From a virus (Duplodnaviria > Caudoviricetes), in the IMG/VR virus record IMGVR_UViG_3300037519_000030, positions 1 to 34,645 of that record: a stretch of DNA of 34,645 bases. One strand, 5' to 3'. Below, one piece after another: positions 10,250 through 25,237 of this stretch. The number at the start of each line of letters is the position of its first letter. The stretch's first letter is position 1. Under the pieces are notes generated by a model. The model was not told the origin of the DNA. It ran no database searches and was given only the letters and a program-made list of their open reading frames with translations. The position numbers were made by a program, and so were the translations under genes.

Positions 10250-10313
10250 TTTGATTGAATAATTATAGGGCAAATGTAAAACTATATTTTAAATACGCAA
10301 TACATAAACAAAA
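10250..10313 (-). promoter_or_regulatory. Main early promoter (ATTG-N19-TACATTTG), copy A of a 64-bp inverted repeat
   Basis: -7 box at 10271-10278 and -33 at 10298-10301; 58/64 identical to 20014-20077. Confidence 0.8.
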
Positions 10314-10377: not shown

Positions 10378-11001
10378 TTATTTTGCCGCCTTAGCTACCC
10401 CAAAGCCGATTAAAGCTCCAACACCTACTTTGAAAGCAGTTGTTTGATACCACTTCTTCTCCTGCTTGATGTAGATGTTATTCATTCCAGTAATCTGCAT
10501 TGATGGGTTATCGATGCGCATACGAATCACTTTATCTCTGCGCTTAAATAATCCTTTGCGAATTGTATCACCAACGGCATAAGTAAAATCGGCATTCATA
10601 ATTAAGCTATCAATCTGCAAGTTGCCTTTAGTGGTTAGCTGCCCACCGATTACCCAAAACTTCTCAGCCTTGTAGAACTTTAAAGGCAATCGCAAGTGCG
10701 GCACTCGGTCGATGATAACAGTATCAGCAACCTTGAACTCGGTCTTAATTACTGTGCGCGTTTTAAACTTTACCACCTCAACGGGATTCTGTAATTCCAA
10801 TTCGAGTGCTGCAATCTGCTTTGCTTGCATTGACTCTTTAGAGTTGCTCTGCGCTATTATCTGCGCCTGCGTTGCAATAGTTGTGCTATCCTCGAATCGA
10901 GTTGTTGTAAGCTCGCAAGGTGCAGGCTGATTAGCGCAAGTTCTAATTAAGAGCAGCAGCAGTATGAGGCAGATTGTTATCAATAGCTTGTTGTAGTCCA
11001 T
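10378..11001 (-). CDS. Putative spanin-like lysis protein
   Basis: N-terminal hydrophobic stretch ending LIRTC, a short coiled coil, a beta-rich middle, and a C-terminal hydrophobic Gly-rich segment; last gene of the lysis block. Confidence 0.5.
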   Translation of the reverse strand: MDYNKLLITICLILLLLLIRTCANQPAPCELTTTRFEDSTTIATQAQIIAQSNSKESMQAKQIAALELELQNPVEVVKFKTRTVIKTEFKVADTVIIDRVPHLRLPLKFYKAEKFWVIGGQLTTKGNLQIDSLIMNADFTYAVGDTIRKGLFKRRDKVIRMRIDNPSMQITGMNNIYIKQEKKWYQTTAFKVGVGALIGFGVAKAAK

Positions 11002-11143
11002 CTTTTATAAGTTTAAAAAGTTTCTTTTTGCTTTTCTCCAGTAGCCTCTTATTTTTAACTTCCGCCTCTAAAATATTGAGTGCCACGCAAACTGGCATAA
11101 AGTTCTCAACTACGTGCAGCGATAGCTTCTCCTCAATTGTCAT
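10943..11143 (-). CDS. Hypothetical small basic helical protein
   Basis: ATGA-coupled to the PAS-HisKA gene. Confidence 0.6.
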   Translation of the reverse strand: MTIEEKLSLHVVENFMPVCVALNILEAEVKNKRLLEKSKKKLFKLIKDGLQQAIDNNLPHTAAALN

Positions 11144-11700
11144 ATCTCGCGCGATGCTTTTTTTATCAATTGGCGCATTGCCTCATCGAGCTTATCAACG
11201 CAGGCATCCACCATTTCAAGCAGTGCAATCTTCTCATCATCAACATTGGTGTCTCGTAGCATCTTAGTAAGTGGTTTGATATTAACGAATGGCTGCCGCA
11301 ATTCGTGCGATAAGATAAATCGAAACTCCTCAAGCAATGCTCGCTGCCTTTCATATTCGTGCGCTGTGATACTGGATACATCAACGAGCTGAATGCCAAT
11401 AAAAGTTATTCTTGTGCCAATTGCGAAGCAGTTCCAAACATTATAGCGATGCACTAAATTTTTATGCTTTGTTCTTGCATAAACTCTTGCAGGGTCAGGC
11501 GATTGTTTCTTGGCTTTTTTTATTGCCTCAATAAAATCTTCGCGGTCAGTTTCAATATCAATTATGTCGATAATCTTCTTAGGCTGAATGTGACTTGCAT
11601 AGCTCTTGAATAAGCTATTATTACTTATTATGTTGCCATCCATATCAGTGACAACATAAAATAAATCAAGGTTATTCTCTAAGATGAATAGTAGAGACAT
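11140..11700 (-). CDS. PAS-like domain plus HisKA (DHp) domain protein lacking HATPase
   Basis: YVVTDMDGNIISNNSLF (PAS start), GIQLVDVS (PAS end), H-box FILSHELRQPF with His132; ends after the second DHp helix. Confidence 0.8.
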   Translation of the reverse strand: MSLLFILENNLDLFYVVTDMDGNIISNNSLFKSYASHIQPKKIIDIIDIETDREDFIEAIKKAKKQSPDPARVYARTKHKNLVHRYNVWNCFAIGTRITFIGIQLVDVSSITAHEYERQRALLEEFRFILSHELRQPFVNIKPLTKMLRDTNVDDEKIALLEMVDACVDKLDEAMRQLIKKASREI

Positions 11701-12146
11701 TGGCGAAGTTCAGTGTATAGTTTCCCCCAAGAAGCAAGCGAGTTGTAAAGCCAGTAAGCGGTGAGTAATATCGTAAAGCTAAACAGCAATCCCATAACTG
11801 GCGCATCTATTGTATCCTTATGCTCAATCAACGTCTTAGGCTTTATCTCGATGCGCTGATATGGCTTAGGATGCACCAAGAATGGCGAGGTGCTCGGAGT
11901 GATTGTATCGCTTGCGTAGATGTCGTGAATCATAGGCGTTTCTTGGTGCGGCATATTATAATAATCGTGCGCAAGTTCGTAGGTTTGACCCCATTGGTCA
12001 ACTGCGTATTGCTTGCCAAAGATAGTGAACTTTTGCACTGGCTCGCCATAGTGCCAAACTTCATAATGCGTGTGCATCTTGCAGCCTTTGCCTAAGATGC
12101 AGTTGTCGCTAAGAGTAACGATGGTATCAGTTCTTTCAGTTATCAT
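11679..12146 (-). CDS. Hypothetical membrane protein with one C-terminal TM helix
   Basis: TM segment VMGLLFSFTILLTAYWLY; N-terminal CILGKGCKMHTH Cys/His cluster. Confidence 0.65.
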   Translation of the reverse strand: MITERTDTIVTLSDNCILGKGCKMHTHYEVWHYGEPVQKFTIFGKQYAVDQWGQTYELAHDYYNMPHQETPMIHDIYASDTITPSTSPFLVHPKPYQRIEIKPKTLIEHKDTIDAPVMGLLFSFTILLTAYWLYNSLASWGKLYTELRQCLYYSS

Positions 12147-12336
12147 CTTGGTTGGCTTTAGGAATATAACCTGCGGCAATCATAGCTGCCACAATAGCGG
12201 CAAGTGTCTCGGTAGAAATCGCTTTAAAAATCAGCGCAAAGACGCTTGATAGAATTACCAGTGAGCCGATTGTCGACCTCCAGTGCTTAACAACAATATC
12301 TACCATCTGCCTTGACTTGCTGATTTTTCTTCGCAT
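12136..12336 (-). CDS. Putative holin (two TM helices)
   Basis: 66 aa, basic N-terminus, two hydrophobic helices, adjacent to the lysozyme. Confidence 0.65.
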   Translation of the reverse strand: MRRKISKSRQMVDIVVKHWRSTIGSLVILSSVFALIFKAISTETLAAIVAAMIAAGYIPKANQDDN

Positions 12337-12341
12337 AGAGT

Positions 12342-12797
12342 TTATACGCTCTTGGAGAAATAAAGTTCTGCTTCTAATGTTCTGCGCTTAACCAAGCCGT
12401 TGACCTTTTTGCCGCCTGCATTTACCCACTTTCCAAACTCTCTTGAGATTGCAGGGTCGGCAGGATTCGCTTTTACTTTGGTTAGTAATGTTGACTTAGC
12501 AAGCGCACCAGTTCCAAGATTAAAAGCAAAAGACACCAACGCATCAAACTGATTTTGGTTGACTGCTGTTGTATTAAGCAGTGCGCTAACATTCTGCTCG
12601 AAGTCGCGCACTGTTTTACGCAAGAGCGCATCTGCCTGCTCTTTGGTAATCTTATCTCCCATCTTAACCTTTTGGTCGTTCGCATAATAGGTGCTGCCGT
12701 AGCCGATAGTTGGCACGTTAGCACTGCAAAGGTAAGCAGTAAGCCGCAAGCCTTCGAATGATTTAATTAGCTCAAGACCTTTAGGGGAGGTGGTCAT
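12342..12797 (-). CDS. Endolysin, GH24 lysozyme
   Basis: IKSFEGLRLTAYLCSANVPTIGYG (E15-x8-C24-x5-T30), QNQFDALVSFAFNLG, GLVKRR. Confidence 0.95.
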   Translation of the reverse strand: MTTSPKGLELIKSFEGLRLTAYLCSANVPTIGYGSTYYANDQKVKMGDKITKEQADALLRKTVRDFEQNVSALLNTTAVNQNQFDALVSFAFNLGTGALAKSTLLTKVKANPADPAISREFGKWVNAGGKKVNGLVKRRTLEAELYFSKSV

Positions 12798-13269: not shown

Positions 13270-13440
13270 CTAAAAGTTTAGTATAAAGAAAACCGCCTCG
13301 CTTGAGGTCGGGAAAGTTATGTTATTAATGGTGTACTGGTCAACGCTGATAAGCATAATGCCCTGCTCGGTTTCAAGATGGAAGGTGTTATCATCTACCA
13401 CTTCGCAAAACTGCCCCTCTGTAATGTCTATGTTTATCAT
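13270..13440 (-). CDS. Hypothetical 56-aa protein (not in ORF track)
   Basis: MINIDITEGQFCEVVDDNTFHLETEQG...FILNF; ATGA-coupled to the fibre gene and fills the gap. Confidence 0.7.
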   Translation of the reverse strand: MINIDITEGQFCEVVDDNTFHLETEQGIMLISVDQYTINNITFPTSSEAVFFILNF

Positions 13441-16166
13441 TGCTTAATAATTTGGAAGTAAGAGATAATTGTTGAATCACCAATCGCTGCATTCTGAATT
13501 GCAAAGATAATATATTGGTTGACTGTCCAATCAATATTAGAATTTGTTTGCACCCCGTTAAAGTTACCTGCGTCGCCAAATAAACTTGATGCTGCATTGA
13601 TTGTCTGTGTTACAGTTGCACTTTTAATCAGCACTTGCCTTTCTGTTCCTAAGTAGTTGTTGGTTGTATTCGTTGTTGTACTTGTTGCAATTAGCGTAGC
13701 GGCTGGCACTGTCAACGAATCGGCAGTGTTGATGTACATTCTTAATGTTGTTAAGCCAGTTGTAGTTGTTTTACCAAACCTGCATTTTATTTCTATTATA
13801 TCACCAACAGCAAAAGTATTTGCAGGCACTAACTGACTTACAACTTTTGTATTTGCCGTTGTACCAGTTACTGCTGCTTGGTTGTTTAAGTCTTTATAAA
13901 TTGATGAAGTCTTATTGTTAAAGGTAGTCCAATTAGCAGCAGTCAAAAATCCCTTGTTGCTTGCGCTTGCTGCTTGCCCATTTGCATAGTCGATGCTTAT
14001 CACTCCTGCCGTTGCCTCAAAATCATTTGCAGTAAAAGCCGCAGCCCCTTTAGTTGTTCCGTCTGCTGCTGCATCTGCTATGCTTATTGCAGGAGTTGTT
14101 CCTCCGCTTGATGCAATTGGAGATGTTCCGCTAACATTGGTAACAGTGCCATTGCCCTTGTTGTTGAATGTTGTCCAATCAGCCGAGCTTAATGCGCCTC
14201 TATTTGCTGCGCTTGCAGTTGGCAAGTTGAAAGTATGAGTATCAGTTGCGGAAGATATCGCAAAGTCAGTGCCCGAAGTTCCTACCACTAAGGTCTGCGC
14301 CGCTGCGGTTAAGCTATTTATAGCAGTGATGCCAGTGCCTGCCATTATACCACTCTGCTGAGTTACTGTTAGAACAACAGATGCAGTTGATGGAGGAGGA
14401 TTTCCTGCGGGTTCAAATGAAATAAAAACAGCTAAATCTTGGGTGCTCCAAACAAACTCATAATAGTCTCCTGCTACAACATCTAATAAAAAGTTCCAAG
14501 ATGGTAATATGTGCCCATCAAAACTACCGTGCTTTTTTGGAACAAGCACAATTCCTGATGAGCCTGCTACATCAACTCCGTTTTTTCTAAGCCATATAGT
14601 AACATCGTGTTCTGATGCTGTTGGATTTCTAAACTGCGCCGACCATTGAATATTGTATATGCCAGTATTTGCAATTGTAACGCGAGAGCCGCTTACAACA
14701 GTTACTTGATTTGATAAGTCGGTTACTCCTAACAACATTGGATAACCAGTATTGATAACAGTAGCAAATTGGTCTGTCACATCTGAAAACGCACCATAGT
14801 AACCTAATGGAGTTGGTGTAGCAGTGTTATTCAATACCCCTGCGCCCGTTAATGTCAAGCCGCTGCCAATTGCAATCTCCTCCATTATGCCAGTGCTTGG
14901 AGAATATCTACCTACAAGGTTCTGAGTTGCCATTGATGTTGTAACAGTTCCGCTTGCGGTAATTGGACCGCCAGATATTAAGCCAGCAGTTGCAACCGAT
15001 GTAACTGTGCCATTTGTCAGCGTTGGAAATAATGTCGGTGTTCCCGTTCCATCTAAGTAGTCGGCATTTGTTCCCGTTGGCACATCGAACTTGCCGTTAA
15101 AAGTATTCCAATCAGTCGAGCTGAGGTAGCCGTCGCTTGCTGCCCCTGCCTGACTGATTGAAATATCGGGAGTTGCTCCGCCGCTTGAAGCTATCGGAGC
15201 TGTAGCAGTAACATCCTCAACGATAGTTGCAGGAAGCACTGGAATAGTCGGCTTGTTTAATATCTGATTGTTGCCGCTTGTTGAATTCCAATCAATTGGC
15301 TGCTGAATAGTTTGTAAGCCTACTCCCAGATTAACCCAATAAGTTGCATTAGTTGGAAGTATTGAATCATTTGCTGCTATACAGCGATAAACATTGCCGT
15401 TATACCAAACAGTATTACCAACCGCATAAGCATTGCCATTAGCTGCTAAGTGGTCTGTGGTAAATTGCAAAGCTATCAATGCTCCTCCACCGCCTCCGCC
15501 GCCGATTGCCACCAATGGGTCTTCTGCCGTTCCGTTTCCGATTATTGTAACACCATCAACAGCAACTTCGGTTAAACAAGGTGTGCAAGGTTGTAAGTCG
15601 GGTAATGGAATATCGCCAGTAGCGCAAGTATCATAGCAGCCATCTTCTGAACTGGTGATTACTTGCACATCGACATCAACACTAACGCAAGCCCATTCGT
15701 AGTTTGCAGTTAATGTCTTAATCTCGTTTATGTATCCCGATGGTACAACCTCGTAGTTAATAACCCCTATGCTCTGCTTAAATAGTGGGTCAGTGCCTGA
15801 GCTAAGTTTGTAGATTCTTGAAGCAAGCCAGTCCTGAGCATCTTCGCTGTCGCAAGGAAGATGAGATTTGCGCACGATAGCATAAGCAGTTAGCGGAAAG
15901 GTTGTAATATACAACTGCTTGCAGCCGCTCATCTTATAAGAATCAGTCTTACTAACTGTTACCTTGCTTCGCTTAGCCCAAAATAGCGTACCATTCTTAG
16001 CATCAAAGTTGGTAACAACCTCAGCCTGCCCATTGCCGATGTAATGCACCCAAGCCTTATCGTTGCCGTTTGCATTAAGCTCGCATAAGCCGAACTGCTT
16101 ATCGAAGATATTAGCTACCTCGATGCGCTGATTTAGCCTTTCAATTATTGTGCGTAGTAGATTCAT
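13437..16166 (-). CDS. Modular fibre-like structural protein with an N-terminal globular (tail-completion-like) domain
   Basis: Poly-Gly linker, CBM5/12-like motif, repeated PIASSGG and WxTFNxK units, C1q/BclA-like domain (YYGAFSD...GIYNIQWSAQF). Confidence 0.7.
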   Translation of the reverse strand: MNLLRTIIERLNQRIEVANIFDKQFGLCELNANGNDKAWVHYIGNGQAEVVTNFDAKNGTLFWAKRSKVTVSKTDSYKMSGCKQLYITTFPLTAYAIVRKSHLPCDSEDAQDWLASRIYKLSSGTDPLFKQSIGVINYEVVPSGYINEIKTLTANYEWACVSVDVDVQVITSSEDGCYDTCATGDIPLPDLQPCTPCLTEVAVDGVTIIGNGTAEDPLVAIGGGGGGGALIALQFTTDHLAANGNAYAVGNTVWYNGNVYRCIAANDSILPTNATYWVNLGVGLQTIQQPIDWNSTSGNNQILNKPTIPVLPATIVEDVTATAPIASSGGATPDISISQAGAASDGYLSSTDWNTFNGKFDVPTGTNADYLDGTGTPTLFPTLTNGTVTSVATAGLISGGPITASGTVTTSMATQNLVGRYSPSTGIMEEIAIGSGLTLTGAGVLNNTATPTPLGYYGAFSDVTDQFATVINTGYPMLLGVTDLSNQVTVVSGSRVTIANTGIYNIQWSAQFRNPTASEHDVTIWLRKNGVDVAGSSGIVLVPKKHGSFDGHILPSWNFLLDVVAGDYYEFVWSTQDLAVFISFEPAGNPPPSTASVVLTVTQQSGIMAGTGITAINSLTAAAQTLVVGTSGTDFAISSATDTHTFNLPTASAANRGALSSADWTTFNNKGNGTVTNVSGTSPIASSGGTTPAISIADAAADGTTKGAAAFTANDFEATAGVISIDYANGQAASASNKGFLTAANWTTFNNKTSSIYKDLNNQAAVTGTTANTKVVSQLVPANTFAVGDIIEIKCRFGKTTTTGLTTLRMYINTADSLTVPAATLIATSTTTNTTNNYLGTERQVLIKSATVTQTINAASSLFGDAGNFNGVQTNSNIDWTVNQYIIFAIQNAAIGDSTIISYFQIIKQ

Positions 16167-20474: not shown

Positions 20475-20789
20475 ATGAAAATAAAAATGCCCTTAAAGAA
20501 TATAACTATTGATGCAAGTTTAAATCAATTGCGAGATGGTGCAGAACTATATGTGAATAGCGATATACACGATTTGTTAATTCAAAATAGTAGACAAGAA
20601 GATATGGAGGAAACTATCTTTTATTTGTGGATTAATTGTGGTAAAGATATGGAAGGTTCAATTATGTTTGATGTTGAAATTGATGAGCTTGAAGAGTTTG
20701 CAAATGCGCTTTTAAAGAAAATTGAAATTGTTCGCAAGAATTATTCAGCGCAGATAAAATATCAAATTGATAGAGGTTGTAACGTATAA
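20475..20789 (+). CDS. Hypothetical acidic protein
   Basis: AT-rich; third tightly packed gene of the island. Confidence 0.7.
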   Translation: MKIKMPLKNITIDASLNQLRDGAELYVNSDIHDLLIQNSRQEDMEETIFYLWINCGKDMEGSIMFDVEIDELEEFANALLKKIEIVRKNYSAQIKYQIDRGCNV

Positions 20790-23626: not shown

Positions 23627-23737
23627 TTACGCTGCTAATTTAATTGGATTTAAGGCAATGCCAGTTGTAGCTCCTGCCCAATTGCTGCCGCACTTCTTGC
23701 CGCCGCACATCTTAATTACTTTAGGTTTAGTTTTCAT
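23627..23737 (-). CDS. Hypothetical 36-aa basic peptide (not in ORF track)
   Basis: MKTKPKVIKMCGGKKCGSNWAGATTGIALNPIKLAA; ATGA-coupled and fills the gap to the portal. Confidence 0.6.
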   Translation of the reverse strand: MKTKPKVIKMCGGKKCGSNWAGATTGIALNPIKLAA

Positions 23738-24297
23738 TTATGTAGAATTGATATGCCTCTGCCTTCTGTGGTGTTCAGCGTTATATTTTTATATCCGAAG
23801 TGTGCTGCGTATTCAACGAGCATTCTCGGTCCTTCTAAGTGAATCGTATCGTGGTAAGCAATAACTCCGCCTCTTGATACAACTTTCTCAACTAACTTAA
23901 ACTCTTTAACAACGTGCTCCCAAGAATGGTCGCCATCAACAAAGATTAAATCAAAGTGATTTGTTGGCAGCTTGCTTAACTCATCAAGTGAATTTCCAAG
24001 TACAAAGTCAATCGCTTTGCCTTTAGAAGTCATCGCCGCCTTAGTCGCATTGGTGCGGTAGTCGTTAATGTCGATGCCTAAGTATTGACCGCCTTGCGGC
24101 AGTGCATTAATTAAGTGCTGAGTTGTCTCGCCCTCGAATACTCCAATCTCTAAGATGGTTCTATACTTCGCCATCTTAACCAGTGCCGCTAAGAATGCGC
24201 CGCACTCATCCTCACTATTCCAATCGTGGCGAGGTTGCTCGCTGAATGTTGCTGTTGTAACAACTTTCTTAGGTCTGCCTACTTTACCTTTTTCCAT
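23734..24297 (-). CDS. Class I SAM-dependent methyltransferase (Methyltransf_24-like)
   Basis: ILEIGVFEGET, FDLIFVDGDHS, GGVIAYHD. Confidence 0.88.
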   Translation of the reverse strand: MEKGKVGRPKKVVTTATFSEQPRHDWNSEDECGAFLAALVKMAKYRTILEIGVFEGETTQHLINALPQGGQYLGIDINDYRTNATKAAMTSKGKAIDFVLGNSLDELSKLPTNHFDLIFVDGDHSWEHVVKEFKLVEKVVSRGGVIAYHDTIHLEGPRMLVEYAAHFGYKNITLNTTEGRGISILHK

Positions 24298-25237
24298 CTG
24301 CAAATTTATTTTGAACAATTCTGTTAATGTAATATATATGTCTTCTGCCAATCGCTTGGTGGTCTGCCTTAAGCATCCTATCAAGCCAGTCAATGTAAAA
24401 GTTCGGTGTGAATCCGTTGCCGCCATAATAAGATTGCAAATAAAACTTTTCAGTAATCTCTTGGAATGTCAAGCCTCTTGTCATCGCAAAGTGAATCATA
24501 CCGCCCTCGCTTGTTTTAATTTTATCGTATGCCTTTAGCGCAGGGTCAACTCCAAGTATCGCCATTGCAATATTCATATACAATTCATCAGGCTGCGAGC
24601 CGCCCCACTTCATTCTTAAGTCCTTTAATGGTATTGGATTATCAAAGTATAACTCTTGCGCCTTGCTGTAAATCGCTGCCGCTTGTTCTCCTTTTACAAC
24701 CCATTGCATCGAGCTATTGATGGCAGGCATAACCGCATCGGCAGGAAGTTCATAGTGCGCCCAAATCTTATCAGCCCAAGCCCACTGCATAGCTTTGAAG
24801 TCGCGCCCCTTGTCGATGGTGTGATAGCCAACTGTATGGCTTATGTAATCTTTGCCCGATTGATTAAGCTCATCAATCATTGGCTGAATGTCTTTAAGCG
24901 CAATAGCATCTACATCAAGGTAGAGGTTGCGCTCGTATGGTAAGTAATCGTATAGCTTAACCTTTAGCTTTGCAGGGTCAAGTTTGTTGTTGGTGTAGAT
25001 GTCACCCTGCGCAATGTCACTAACATAGTCAATGCAATTGTGTAGCTCAGGGCATTGGCTGAACGCCTTGCCTCTGTCATCTACAATTAGCGCAATGTTT
25101 ATTGTAGGGTTAAACTTCTTAATGCTGAAAGCAAGGTTATAAGCAGCCCAATAATACTGCACCTTACCGAATGCAAGAAGCACCACTCCAGTTGTTGGAG
25201 TGATGCTCTGAATAGGATTAGTTGCTTCGCTGCTCAT
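24284..25237 (-). CDS. GT-A fold glycosyltransferase (GT8-like)
   Basis: AYNLAFSIK, KVKLYDYLPYERNLYLDVD (DxD), INSS, PDE. Confidence 0.75.
   Translation of the reverse strand: MSSEATNPIQSITPTTGVVLLAFGKVQYYWAAYNLAFSIKKFNPTINIALIVDDRGKAFSQCPELHNCIDYVSDIAQGDIYTNNKLDPAKLKVKLYDYLPYERNLYLDVDAIALKDIQPMIDELNQSGKDYISHTVGYHTIDKGRDFKAMQWAWADKIWAHYELPADAVMPAINSSMQWVVKGEQAAAIYSKAQELYFDNPIPLKDLRMKWGGSQPDELYMNIAMAILGVDPALKAYDKIKTSEGGMIHFAMTRGLTFQEITEKFYLQSYYGGNGFTPNFYIDWLDRMLKADHQAIGRRHIYYINRIVQNKFADGKR

Follow-up and report, generated by a model that had tools for sequence, protein, structure and literature searches.

A PAS-DHp protein without an ATPase domain is conserved in the lysis cassette of tailed phages

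Introduction

Histidine kinases of the PAS-HisKA type, such as FixL/YF1, PhoR and WalK, combine a PAS domain, a signalling helix and a DHp hairpin that carries the H-box. The same elements are found in a small protein described here, hereafter PAS-DHp, which is encoded on the minus strand at positions 11140-11700 of the IMG/VR virus record IMGVR_UViG_3300037519_000030 (Duplodnaviria; Caudoviricetes) and for which kinases of this type are the best structural and profile matches. The whole stretch of DNA analysed, 34,645 bases long and called the window in this study, is a phage record that CheckV rates as 99% complete, with genes for terminase, portal, primase, helicase and lysozyme. Unlike the kinases, however, PAS-DHp has no CA/HATPase domain, no Thr or Asn at the fourth position after the predicted phospho-accepting His (H+4) and no cognate regulator in the phage, and the acidic residue next to the His (H+1) is not conserved in the deep members of its family. 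A first-pass annotation made from the sequence alone had singled out this gene as a candidate lysis-signalling or host two-component decoy system.

Several described systems resemble parts of this arrangement. ChpT and Spo0B are DHp-type phosphotransferases that carry the phospho-accepting His on a DHp-like dimer and do not autophosphorylate; unlike PAS-DHp, both lack a PAS domain, retain a CA-like domain in degenerate form and relay phosphate between two receivers in a cellular pathway. Cellular Bacteroidota possess ATPase-less multi-PAS-DHp proteins with the same end after the DHp domain, the same helix-1 consensus and an invariant His, whereas the phage proteins form a separate clade (support 0.97), have a shortened PAS domain and are encoded in lysis cassettes together with two phage-specific partners. 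No study on the function of this cellular family was found in a literature search covering main texts outside subscription journals. Known regulators of holin timing, such as RI of phage T4, answer superinfection and work without phospho-signalling. In T4 lysis inhibition, which involves the holin T and the antiholin RI, accessory membrane or periplasmic proteins time the holin on a signal (PMC11413866). We found no sequence relation between T4 and the cassette studied here, T4 uses no phospho-histidine protein for this purpose, and an antiholin role of the cassette proteins is a proposal only. A phage protein that acts on host two-component signalling is PIT4 of Pseudomonas phage LSL4; it differs in being an early gene product that binds host kinase domains, and its abstract mentions neither a PAS or DHp nature nor a link to lysis (PMC10714779). 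A phage PAS-HisKA protein in a lysis cassette was likewise not described in the literature covered by our search. The parts of the system are of known kinds, and it is their arrangement that is undescribed in the literature searched.

Results

The open reading frame of PAS-DHp encodes 186 amino acids, with a PAS domain at about residues 3-107 and a linker helix and DHp hairpin at residues 113-185. The H-box SHELRQP contains the predicted phospho-acceptor His132 (codon at 11305-11307, minus strand), and the protein ends 54 residues past this His. The Pfam HisKA model matches residues 130-178 with an E-value of 8e-5 and 23 bits, under its cut-off of 26.9. An AlphaFold2 model from 32 sequences (pLDDT 84) places an alpha/beta domain of PAS type in front of a hairpin of two helices, which run from residue 113 to 150 and from 154 to 185. 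In a Foldseek search this model matched best to histidine kinases of the LOV/PAS type (8a52, E 2e-7) and to PAS domains, the latter with TM-scores of 0.70-0.77 by target length, in keeping with a five-stranded PAS fold, and TIGR00229 (PAS) matches weakly to relatives of the protein. The sub-threshold HisKA match, the predicted hairpin and the invariant His132 identify a DHp hairpin with an H-box like that of HisKA kinases, so the PAS-like domain, the intact H-box and the end after the DHp domain noticed in the first-pass annotation are borne out. In the alignment, a LOV-type cysteine motif was not seen, and conservation at H37 and W89 is partial; a PAS motif particular to the phage clade (H37 in 34/40, P40 in 37/40) is conserved, and the PAS loop of the clade is shortened.

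The absence of an ATPase and of a receiver, which had also been noted at the outset, holds for the whole phage. Neither HATPase_c (PF02518) nor Response_reg (PF00072) gave a match in this 99% complete record, while the same scans were positive in 14/14 and 12/14 control genomes, respectively, and neither domain was found in four virus records related to the window, of which one is complete. PAS-DHp has no CA domain in cis or in a neighbouring gene.

The first search recovered 53 homologs with 37-97% identity, mostly 183-206 amino acids long and none longer (search range 102-326), and many further short forms, more distantly related, came from searching 1.84 billion representatives with a profile. 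The 236 loci compared include some contigs counted twice and hold 176 distinct gene sequences. His132 is kept in all 176. It is also present in 40/40 diverse sequences (19-63% identity), which were picked by eye from short matches, with genomic context available for some only, and in which Asn28 and His132 are the only invariant residues. The stop codon lies 54 or 56 residues past the His in 159 loci and 54-57 residues past it in 234/236. The flanks of the H-box are less constrained, since in the diverse set E133 is kept in 14/40 and R135 and P137 in 31/40 each; the H+1 acid is Glu in 173/176 close genes and is Glu or Asp in just 20/40 diverse sequences, and the deep phage members have a cellular-type SHKVRKP box. 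At H+4, Gln occupies 172/176 distinct genes, and the diverse sequences have Gln (19), Lys (7), Ala (4), Arg (3), Asn (2), Gly (2) or Ser (2) as the seven commonest residues. The Thr/Asn phosphatase signature is thus not a feature of the family, with Asn in only 2/40 and Thr outside these seven. The spacing from Gly102 to His132 is 30 in 35/40 phage-clade sequences and 37 in one.

The ratio of nonsynonymous to synonymous substitution rates (dN/dS) of PAS-DHp is 0.071 (0.070 for the PAS domain, 0.084 for linker and DHp), compared with 0.104 for the lysozyme, 0.121 for the holin-like protein, 0.208 for the transmembrane (TM) protein, 0.097 for the 66-aa protein and 0.144 for the spanin-like protein of the same cassette; these are Nei-Gojobori values over 252 non-independent sampled pairs with dS of 0.05-1. 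The 40 phage-type sequences form one clade apart from 100 other relatives (FastTree support 0.97), and PAS-DHp is intact in all loci examined. Because dN/dS is 0.07, the stop position is fixed, the gene is intact and it forms a clade of its own, we conclude from these comparisons that PAS-DHp is a selected gene and not a decaying fragment. The observations that the first-pass annotation had named in advance as fatal to its proposal came out the other way: the homologs are no full-length kinases, His132 is invariant and the position in the lysis cassette is conserved.

The same search results also reveal where the missing ATPase comes from. Among the 150 matches listed, 81 exceed 250 amino acids and reach the DHp domain, and 75 of these 81 end no more than 45 residues beyond it; the other six continue into PAS-like sequence (three), a receiver (one) or a HATPase-like domain (two). 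All named ATPase-less relatives are from Bacteroidota and include Flavipsychrobacter multi-PAS proteins (e.g. P0054), Cytophagales TAH20532.1 and Pararhodonellum WP_194774445.1; in Pararhodonellum marinum there is a single-PAS form of 208 amino acids on an 886-kb bacterial contig. In a genome sample from the phylum of a Bacteroidota metagenome-assembled genome (MAG), eight of the nine best-scoring host loci end after the DHp domain and 20/20 weaker loci continue, and 69 host stretches taken from the head of the match list hold 30 proteins with this end and 45 that run on. The phospho-acceptor position is His in 100/100 cellular relatives, and the phage proteins match the cellular family in the PLAxIxGL stretch of DHp helix 1. 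They have both marks of this family, an end within about 45 residues of the DHp domain and a helix 1 of the SHxxRxPLAxIxGL type. The cellular Gly-to-His linker spacing steps by sevens (25, 32, 39, 46), which we read as expected for a signalling helix, and Thr or Asn at H+4 is absent from all 28 ATPase-less cellular proteins whose H-box could be parsed. For 30 cellular members, a small profile that may miss divergent receivers found a receiver as the next gene in three and in cis in two, four in total; the cellular relative P0152 is a DHp-REC fusion. Since ATPase-less ends are common in the cellular relatives, the idea of a phage-made truncation is abandoned; by these comparisons the missing ATPase is inherited from a widespread cellular Bacteroidota family, of which the phage gene is a minimal member. 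The envelope-stress kinases suggested earlier as targets fare no better, because the closest cellular DHp domains belong to the ATPase-less family. No other copy of the phage clade was found among 120 further genomes from the phylum of genome G001. The cellular family is multi-copy per genome (several in G027 and in G087) and includes a phytochrome-type sensor and the DHp-receiver fusion (host loci L250-L318; P0057, P0152). The 'unorthodox' kinase RgzA of F. johnsoniae was considered as a member and rejected, as it has a CA domain.

PAS-DHp lies in a cassette of six genes, about 2.4 kb long, on the minus strand. The cassette begins with a phage lysozyme at 12342-12797 (PF00959, E 3.6e-44; phrog_7 endolysin), which is present in 157/157 distinct loci with room for it and is followed after a 5-nt gap by a holin-like small membrane protein of 66 amino acids at 12136-12336 (upstream in 174/174), so labelled from its size, hydrophobicity and position. 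An 11-nt overlap leads to the single-TM protein at 11679-12146, 155 amino acids from the ATG at 12146 (upstream in 176/176), and a 22-nt overlap to PAS-DHp. Beyond a 4-nt overlap follows the 66-aa three-helix protein at 10943-11143, a candidate partner (directly downstream in 168/169), and beyond a 59-nt overlap the spanin-like, DUF6549-related protein at 10378-11001, which is recognized by topology and position (157/164). These counts are over distinct loci with enough flank, window included, and the profiles were built from the same loci, including L081 and L082. The coordinates agree with the packed, overlapping chain from lysozyme to spanin described in the first-pass annotation. Its labels stand in part: the lysozyme is the only cassette protein with a firm family match, the holin and the spanin are called by topology and position only, and the 66-aa protein, presented as basic, is only mildly so (pI 8.9).

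The order lysozyme, holin-like, TM, PAS-DHp, small protein, spanin is found in 206/236 loci, and the remainder are mostly cut by contig ends. Of the seven loci without the spanin-like gene, three are apparently such cuts, a different lipoprotein gene or a DUF6549 gene is found in three, and none lies adjacent in L082. Because most loci come from one phage group, the distant phages carry the weight of this argument. G002 (71.5 kb, 49% complete) has only four of 31 window genes in common, namely PAS-DHp, the holin-like protein, the lysozyme and a tail fragment, and G005 (32 kb, 45% complete) has seven of 31, five of them within the cassette. Both phages have their own portal and terminase, unrelated to those of the window, and both keep the order holin-TM-PAS-DHp-small-spanin. 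Locus L238, from a basal branch with 24% identity, still has the holin-like, TM and PAS-DHp genes in a row. With a dN/dS of 0.07 and a cassette kept on unrelated backbones, the proposal of a signalling protein under selection and tied to a lysis module is upheld. Contexts of the most distant members were sought in viral scans with A7 and P0069, which found none, and in a metagenome scan (43/64 parts), which gave one locus.

The overlapping reading frames suggest that expression of PAS-DHp is coupled with that of the lysis genes. In 233/233 loci the TM gene begins inside the 3' end of the holin-like gene and in the same (+1) frame (window 12136-12146), with an ATG 8-17 nt ahead of the holin stop. 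A frameshift fusion of these two genes was considered and rejected, as no common slippery sequence is evident in 15 lineages inspected and the ATG is present in all loci, which points to translational coupling. A frameshift fusion of the TM gene with PAS-DHp, which would make a split membrane kinase, was rejected as well, since the frame varies (162/44/28) and gaps reach at least 40 nt in many loci.

The TM protein has a single C-terminal TM segment and then a short Trp-containing amphipathic helix, and its net charge is more positive on the C-side of the segment in 33/41 sequences. The motif D(S/T)(A/I/L/M/T/V), the O-glycosylation sequon of Bacteroidota according to PMC10897501, occurs 115 times in 41 related TM proteins, with at least one in 40/41, against 19.5 +/- 4.0 in shuffled sequences. 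It is also enriched in the spanin-like protein (132 versus 21.7) and not in the lysozyme (3 versus 9), the holin-like protein (0 versus 6), PAS-DHp (30 versus 28) or the 66-aa protein (1 versus 4), all counts being over related, non-independent sequences. The TM protein is thus probably an N-out periplasmic O-glycoprotein, as predicted from its sequence, with a cytoplasmic helix. In L238 it starts with a signal-like peptide; the window's protein has none. Some lineages (window, L018, L081, L083) retain a Cys-x4/5-Cys-x2-His motif close to the N-terminus of this protein, and others (L092, L096) have lost it.

The 66-aa protein is predicted by AlphaFold2 to form three helices, and its dN/dS is about 0.10. 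It gave no Foldseek match at E <= 0.001, no usable Atlas match and no consistent Pfam family over 29 members, and its best VIA match (Z 6.5) is among unrelated helical proteins. Complex prediction of a PAS-DHp dimer with the 66-aa protein gave a median of 0.26 (0.02, 0.57, 0.26) against a mark of 0.32, which allows no verdict and is counted neither way. The copy in the window's lineage lacks four residues of helix 1, lost relative to that of L010. The spanin-like protein has an N-terminal hydrophobic stretch with a Cys (Cys motif in 142/157) and a C-terminal hydrophobic tail (157/157), a layout that we take to resemble a unimolecular spanin; its relatives match DUF6549, and one weakly matches the Rz-like spanin phrog_214.

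Just past the cassette, at 10271-10278 on the minus strand, lies a TAnnTTTG motif, presumably the -7 promoter element of Bacteroidota and the likely start of the next transcription unit. Within 200 nt past the spanin stop the motif occurs on the sense strand in 145/154 loci, compared with 19 on the antisense strand and 17 in shuffled sequence; genome-wide it is not enriched (43 versus 36). A Shine-Dalgarno pattern was not seen by eye upstream of 29 genes. Because of the Bacteroidota cellular relatives, the sequon-rich exported proteins, the TAnnTTTG motif and the absent Shine-Dalgarno pattern, the host is likely a Bacteroidota bacterium, as far as sequence can tell. Three matches to PAS-DHp in genome contigs belong to MAGs of three different phyla, in contigs only 2.7-4.7 kb long; these are probably mis-binned phage contigs and do not name the host. 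No integrase was matched among the 41 open reading frames scanned, and among the cultured phages in INPHARED none has a protein matching PAS-DHp.

Discussion

We propose that PAS-DHp is a switch that accepts phosphate from host donors and would, by way of the TM and 66-aa proteins as partners, tune lysis that depends on the holin; we give this reading a probability of roughly 0.4. HisKA kinases need the H+1 acid to autophosphorylate and Thr or Asn at H+4 to act as phosphatases (PMC3510030). As only the His is fixed, H+1 drifts, H+4 is hardly ever Thr or Asn and there is no CA domain, phospho-acceptance appears to be the simplest role for His132. PAS-DHp would dimerise through its DHp domain in the cytoplasm. 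Since the phage encodes neither a receiver nor a CA domain, the donor would come from the host, and His132 could be phosphorylated either by reverse transfer from a phosphorylated receiver or by a host CA domain in trans. This step would be gated by the PAS domain through the fixed-length helix. The state of PAS-DHp would be passed by contact to the 66-aa protein, to the cytoplasmic helix of the TM protein or to both, while the glycosylated periplasmic part of the TM protein would span to the envelope; the contact may then hold or release the holin, as antiholins do in T4. This output to the holin is suggested by the position in the cassette, by analogy with the T4 antiholin RI (PMC11413866).

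Several points weigh against this reading. Most loci are from one phage group and are not independent, and the invariance of His132 may be due in part to profile-based retrieval. The holin-like gene matches no holin family and owes its label to topology and position. Of 30 cellular family members, 26 have no receiver adjacent or in cis. Neither partner gene has to be a direct neighbour, since inserted genes separate the TM gene from PAS-DHp in L160 and L236, where the 66-aa gene remains attached, and the 66-aa gene is absent in L159. Finally, the position would fit late expression as well as lysis control, because other genes are inserted into the cassette too (L081, L162, L238, L160).

The last point also speaks for the main rival reading, which we rate as somewhat less probable than our own, namely that PAS-DHp is a late phosphate sink or decoy that takes phosphate from, or heterodimerises with, host ATPase-less DHp proteins and receivers, dampening a host response such as motility, secretion or envelope stress, with the cassette merely giving late expression. 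The hosts are rich in related proteins (the 30 in the 69 host stretches from the top of the match list), the helix-1 residues are those of the cellular family, and PIT4 offers a precedent of a phage protein that binds host kinase domains (PMC10714779). However, host-takeover genes such as PIT4 are early, whereas PAS-DHp stays among the lysis genes in every case, also where the phage backbones are unrelated; it is accompanied by two phage-specific partners that are themselves under purifying selection, for which a simple sink would have no need, and the conserved PAS sensor suggests regulation over titration. It is unlikely, in our view, that PAS-DHp regulates lysis independently of phosphorylation, as an antiholin-like or scaffold dimer, switched by a PAS ligand or unswitched, in which His132 would serve structure or metal binding. 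The sole invariant DHp residue is the phospho-acceptor position, which is His in the cellular relatives as well, and the alignment has no second conserved metal ligand near it, although the phage encodes no phospho-donor or receiver, the residues flanking the H-box His have eroded in the deep branches and the clade has the PAS motif and shortened loop of its own.

A stand-alone phosphatase for host response regulators, a role raised in the first-pass annotation, is quite improbable. The HisKA phosphatase site does lie in DHp domains, but CrdS needs Thr or Asn at H+4 and its N375Q variant has no measurable phosphatase activity (PMC3510030), and Gln is just what nearly all phage genes have there, with neither Thr nor Asn in the cellular ATPase-less members. 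That the phage has merely picked up part of a host kinase gene, which now decays or drifts neutrally, has next to no chance of being true: the Pfam score is under the cut-off and the window has Pro143 where most relatives have Gly, but the selection and conservation data, with the stop in place in 234/236 loci, an intact gene and a separate clade, refute it.

The time of lysis determines how large the burst is and how fast bacteria are turned over by phages. A putative phospho-histidine sensor that is under stronger selection than the lysozyme and occurs in the cassettes of unrelated phages suggests that host signalling and lysis are connected in a way not described before. We can only tentatively suggest that the lysis clock reads host signalling, with the holin wired to the host phosphorelay through the PAS-DHp switch, a periplasm-facing glycoprotein and a small helical adaptor, which would be a new form of lysis control; small lytic phages unable to afford a full two-component system would then use the phosphorelay of the host. 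If this is true, the phage gene would offer a first tractable way into the ATPase-less histidine proteins of Bacteroidota, a large family that is unstudied. The cassette is small enough to be rebuilt in a laboratory Bacteroidota, and such work would bear both on lysis control and on the function of the cellular family.

Some minor observations concern the gene and its cassette. The window's DHp helix 1 has Pro143 (codon 11272-11274), where 33/40 relatives have Gly. In L083, L110, L113 and L124, PAS-DHp has no ATG at the usual start and has Val there, so that a GTG start is probable. Short PAS-fold proteins (165-240 amino acids) are found in other phages by BFVD matches, including Cellulophaga phi18:3 (S0A2B2), phi19:1 (R9ZZL0) and several uncultured Caudovirales. 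A second endolysin, an M15 peptidase, lies between the TM and PAS-DHp genes in L160 (1958-2440). A secreted-type protein of 234-258 amino acids is encoded just upstream of the holin-like gene in three distant phages, L081 (3453-4214), L162 (3477-4253) and L238 (305-1009), after the lysozyme in the first two; it has a signal peptide, weak F5/8-type Pfam matches only, and a C-terminal D-x-x-G-R motif that we take to resemble the end of type IX secretion cargo. In L159 (1523-1984) and L236 (886-1347) a different lipoprotein of 153 amino acids, with a C-terminal TM segment and no family match, replaces or precedes the spanin-like gene. Elsewhere in the window there are a ParB-like/DNA-methyltransferase fusion (512-1834), a 909-aa tail-like protein with a weak CBM5/12 match (13437-16166), a lone plus-strand open reading frame in a low-GC stretch (20475-20789) and an O-methyltransferase among the structural genes (23734-24426).

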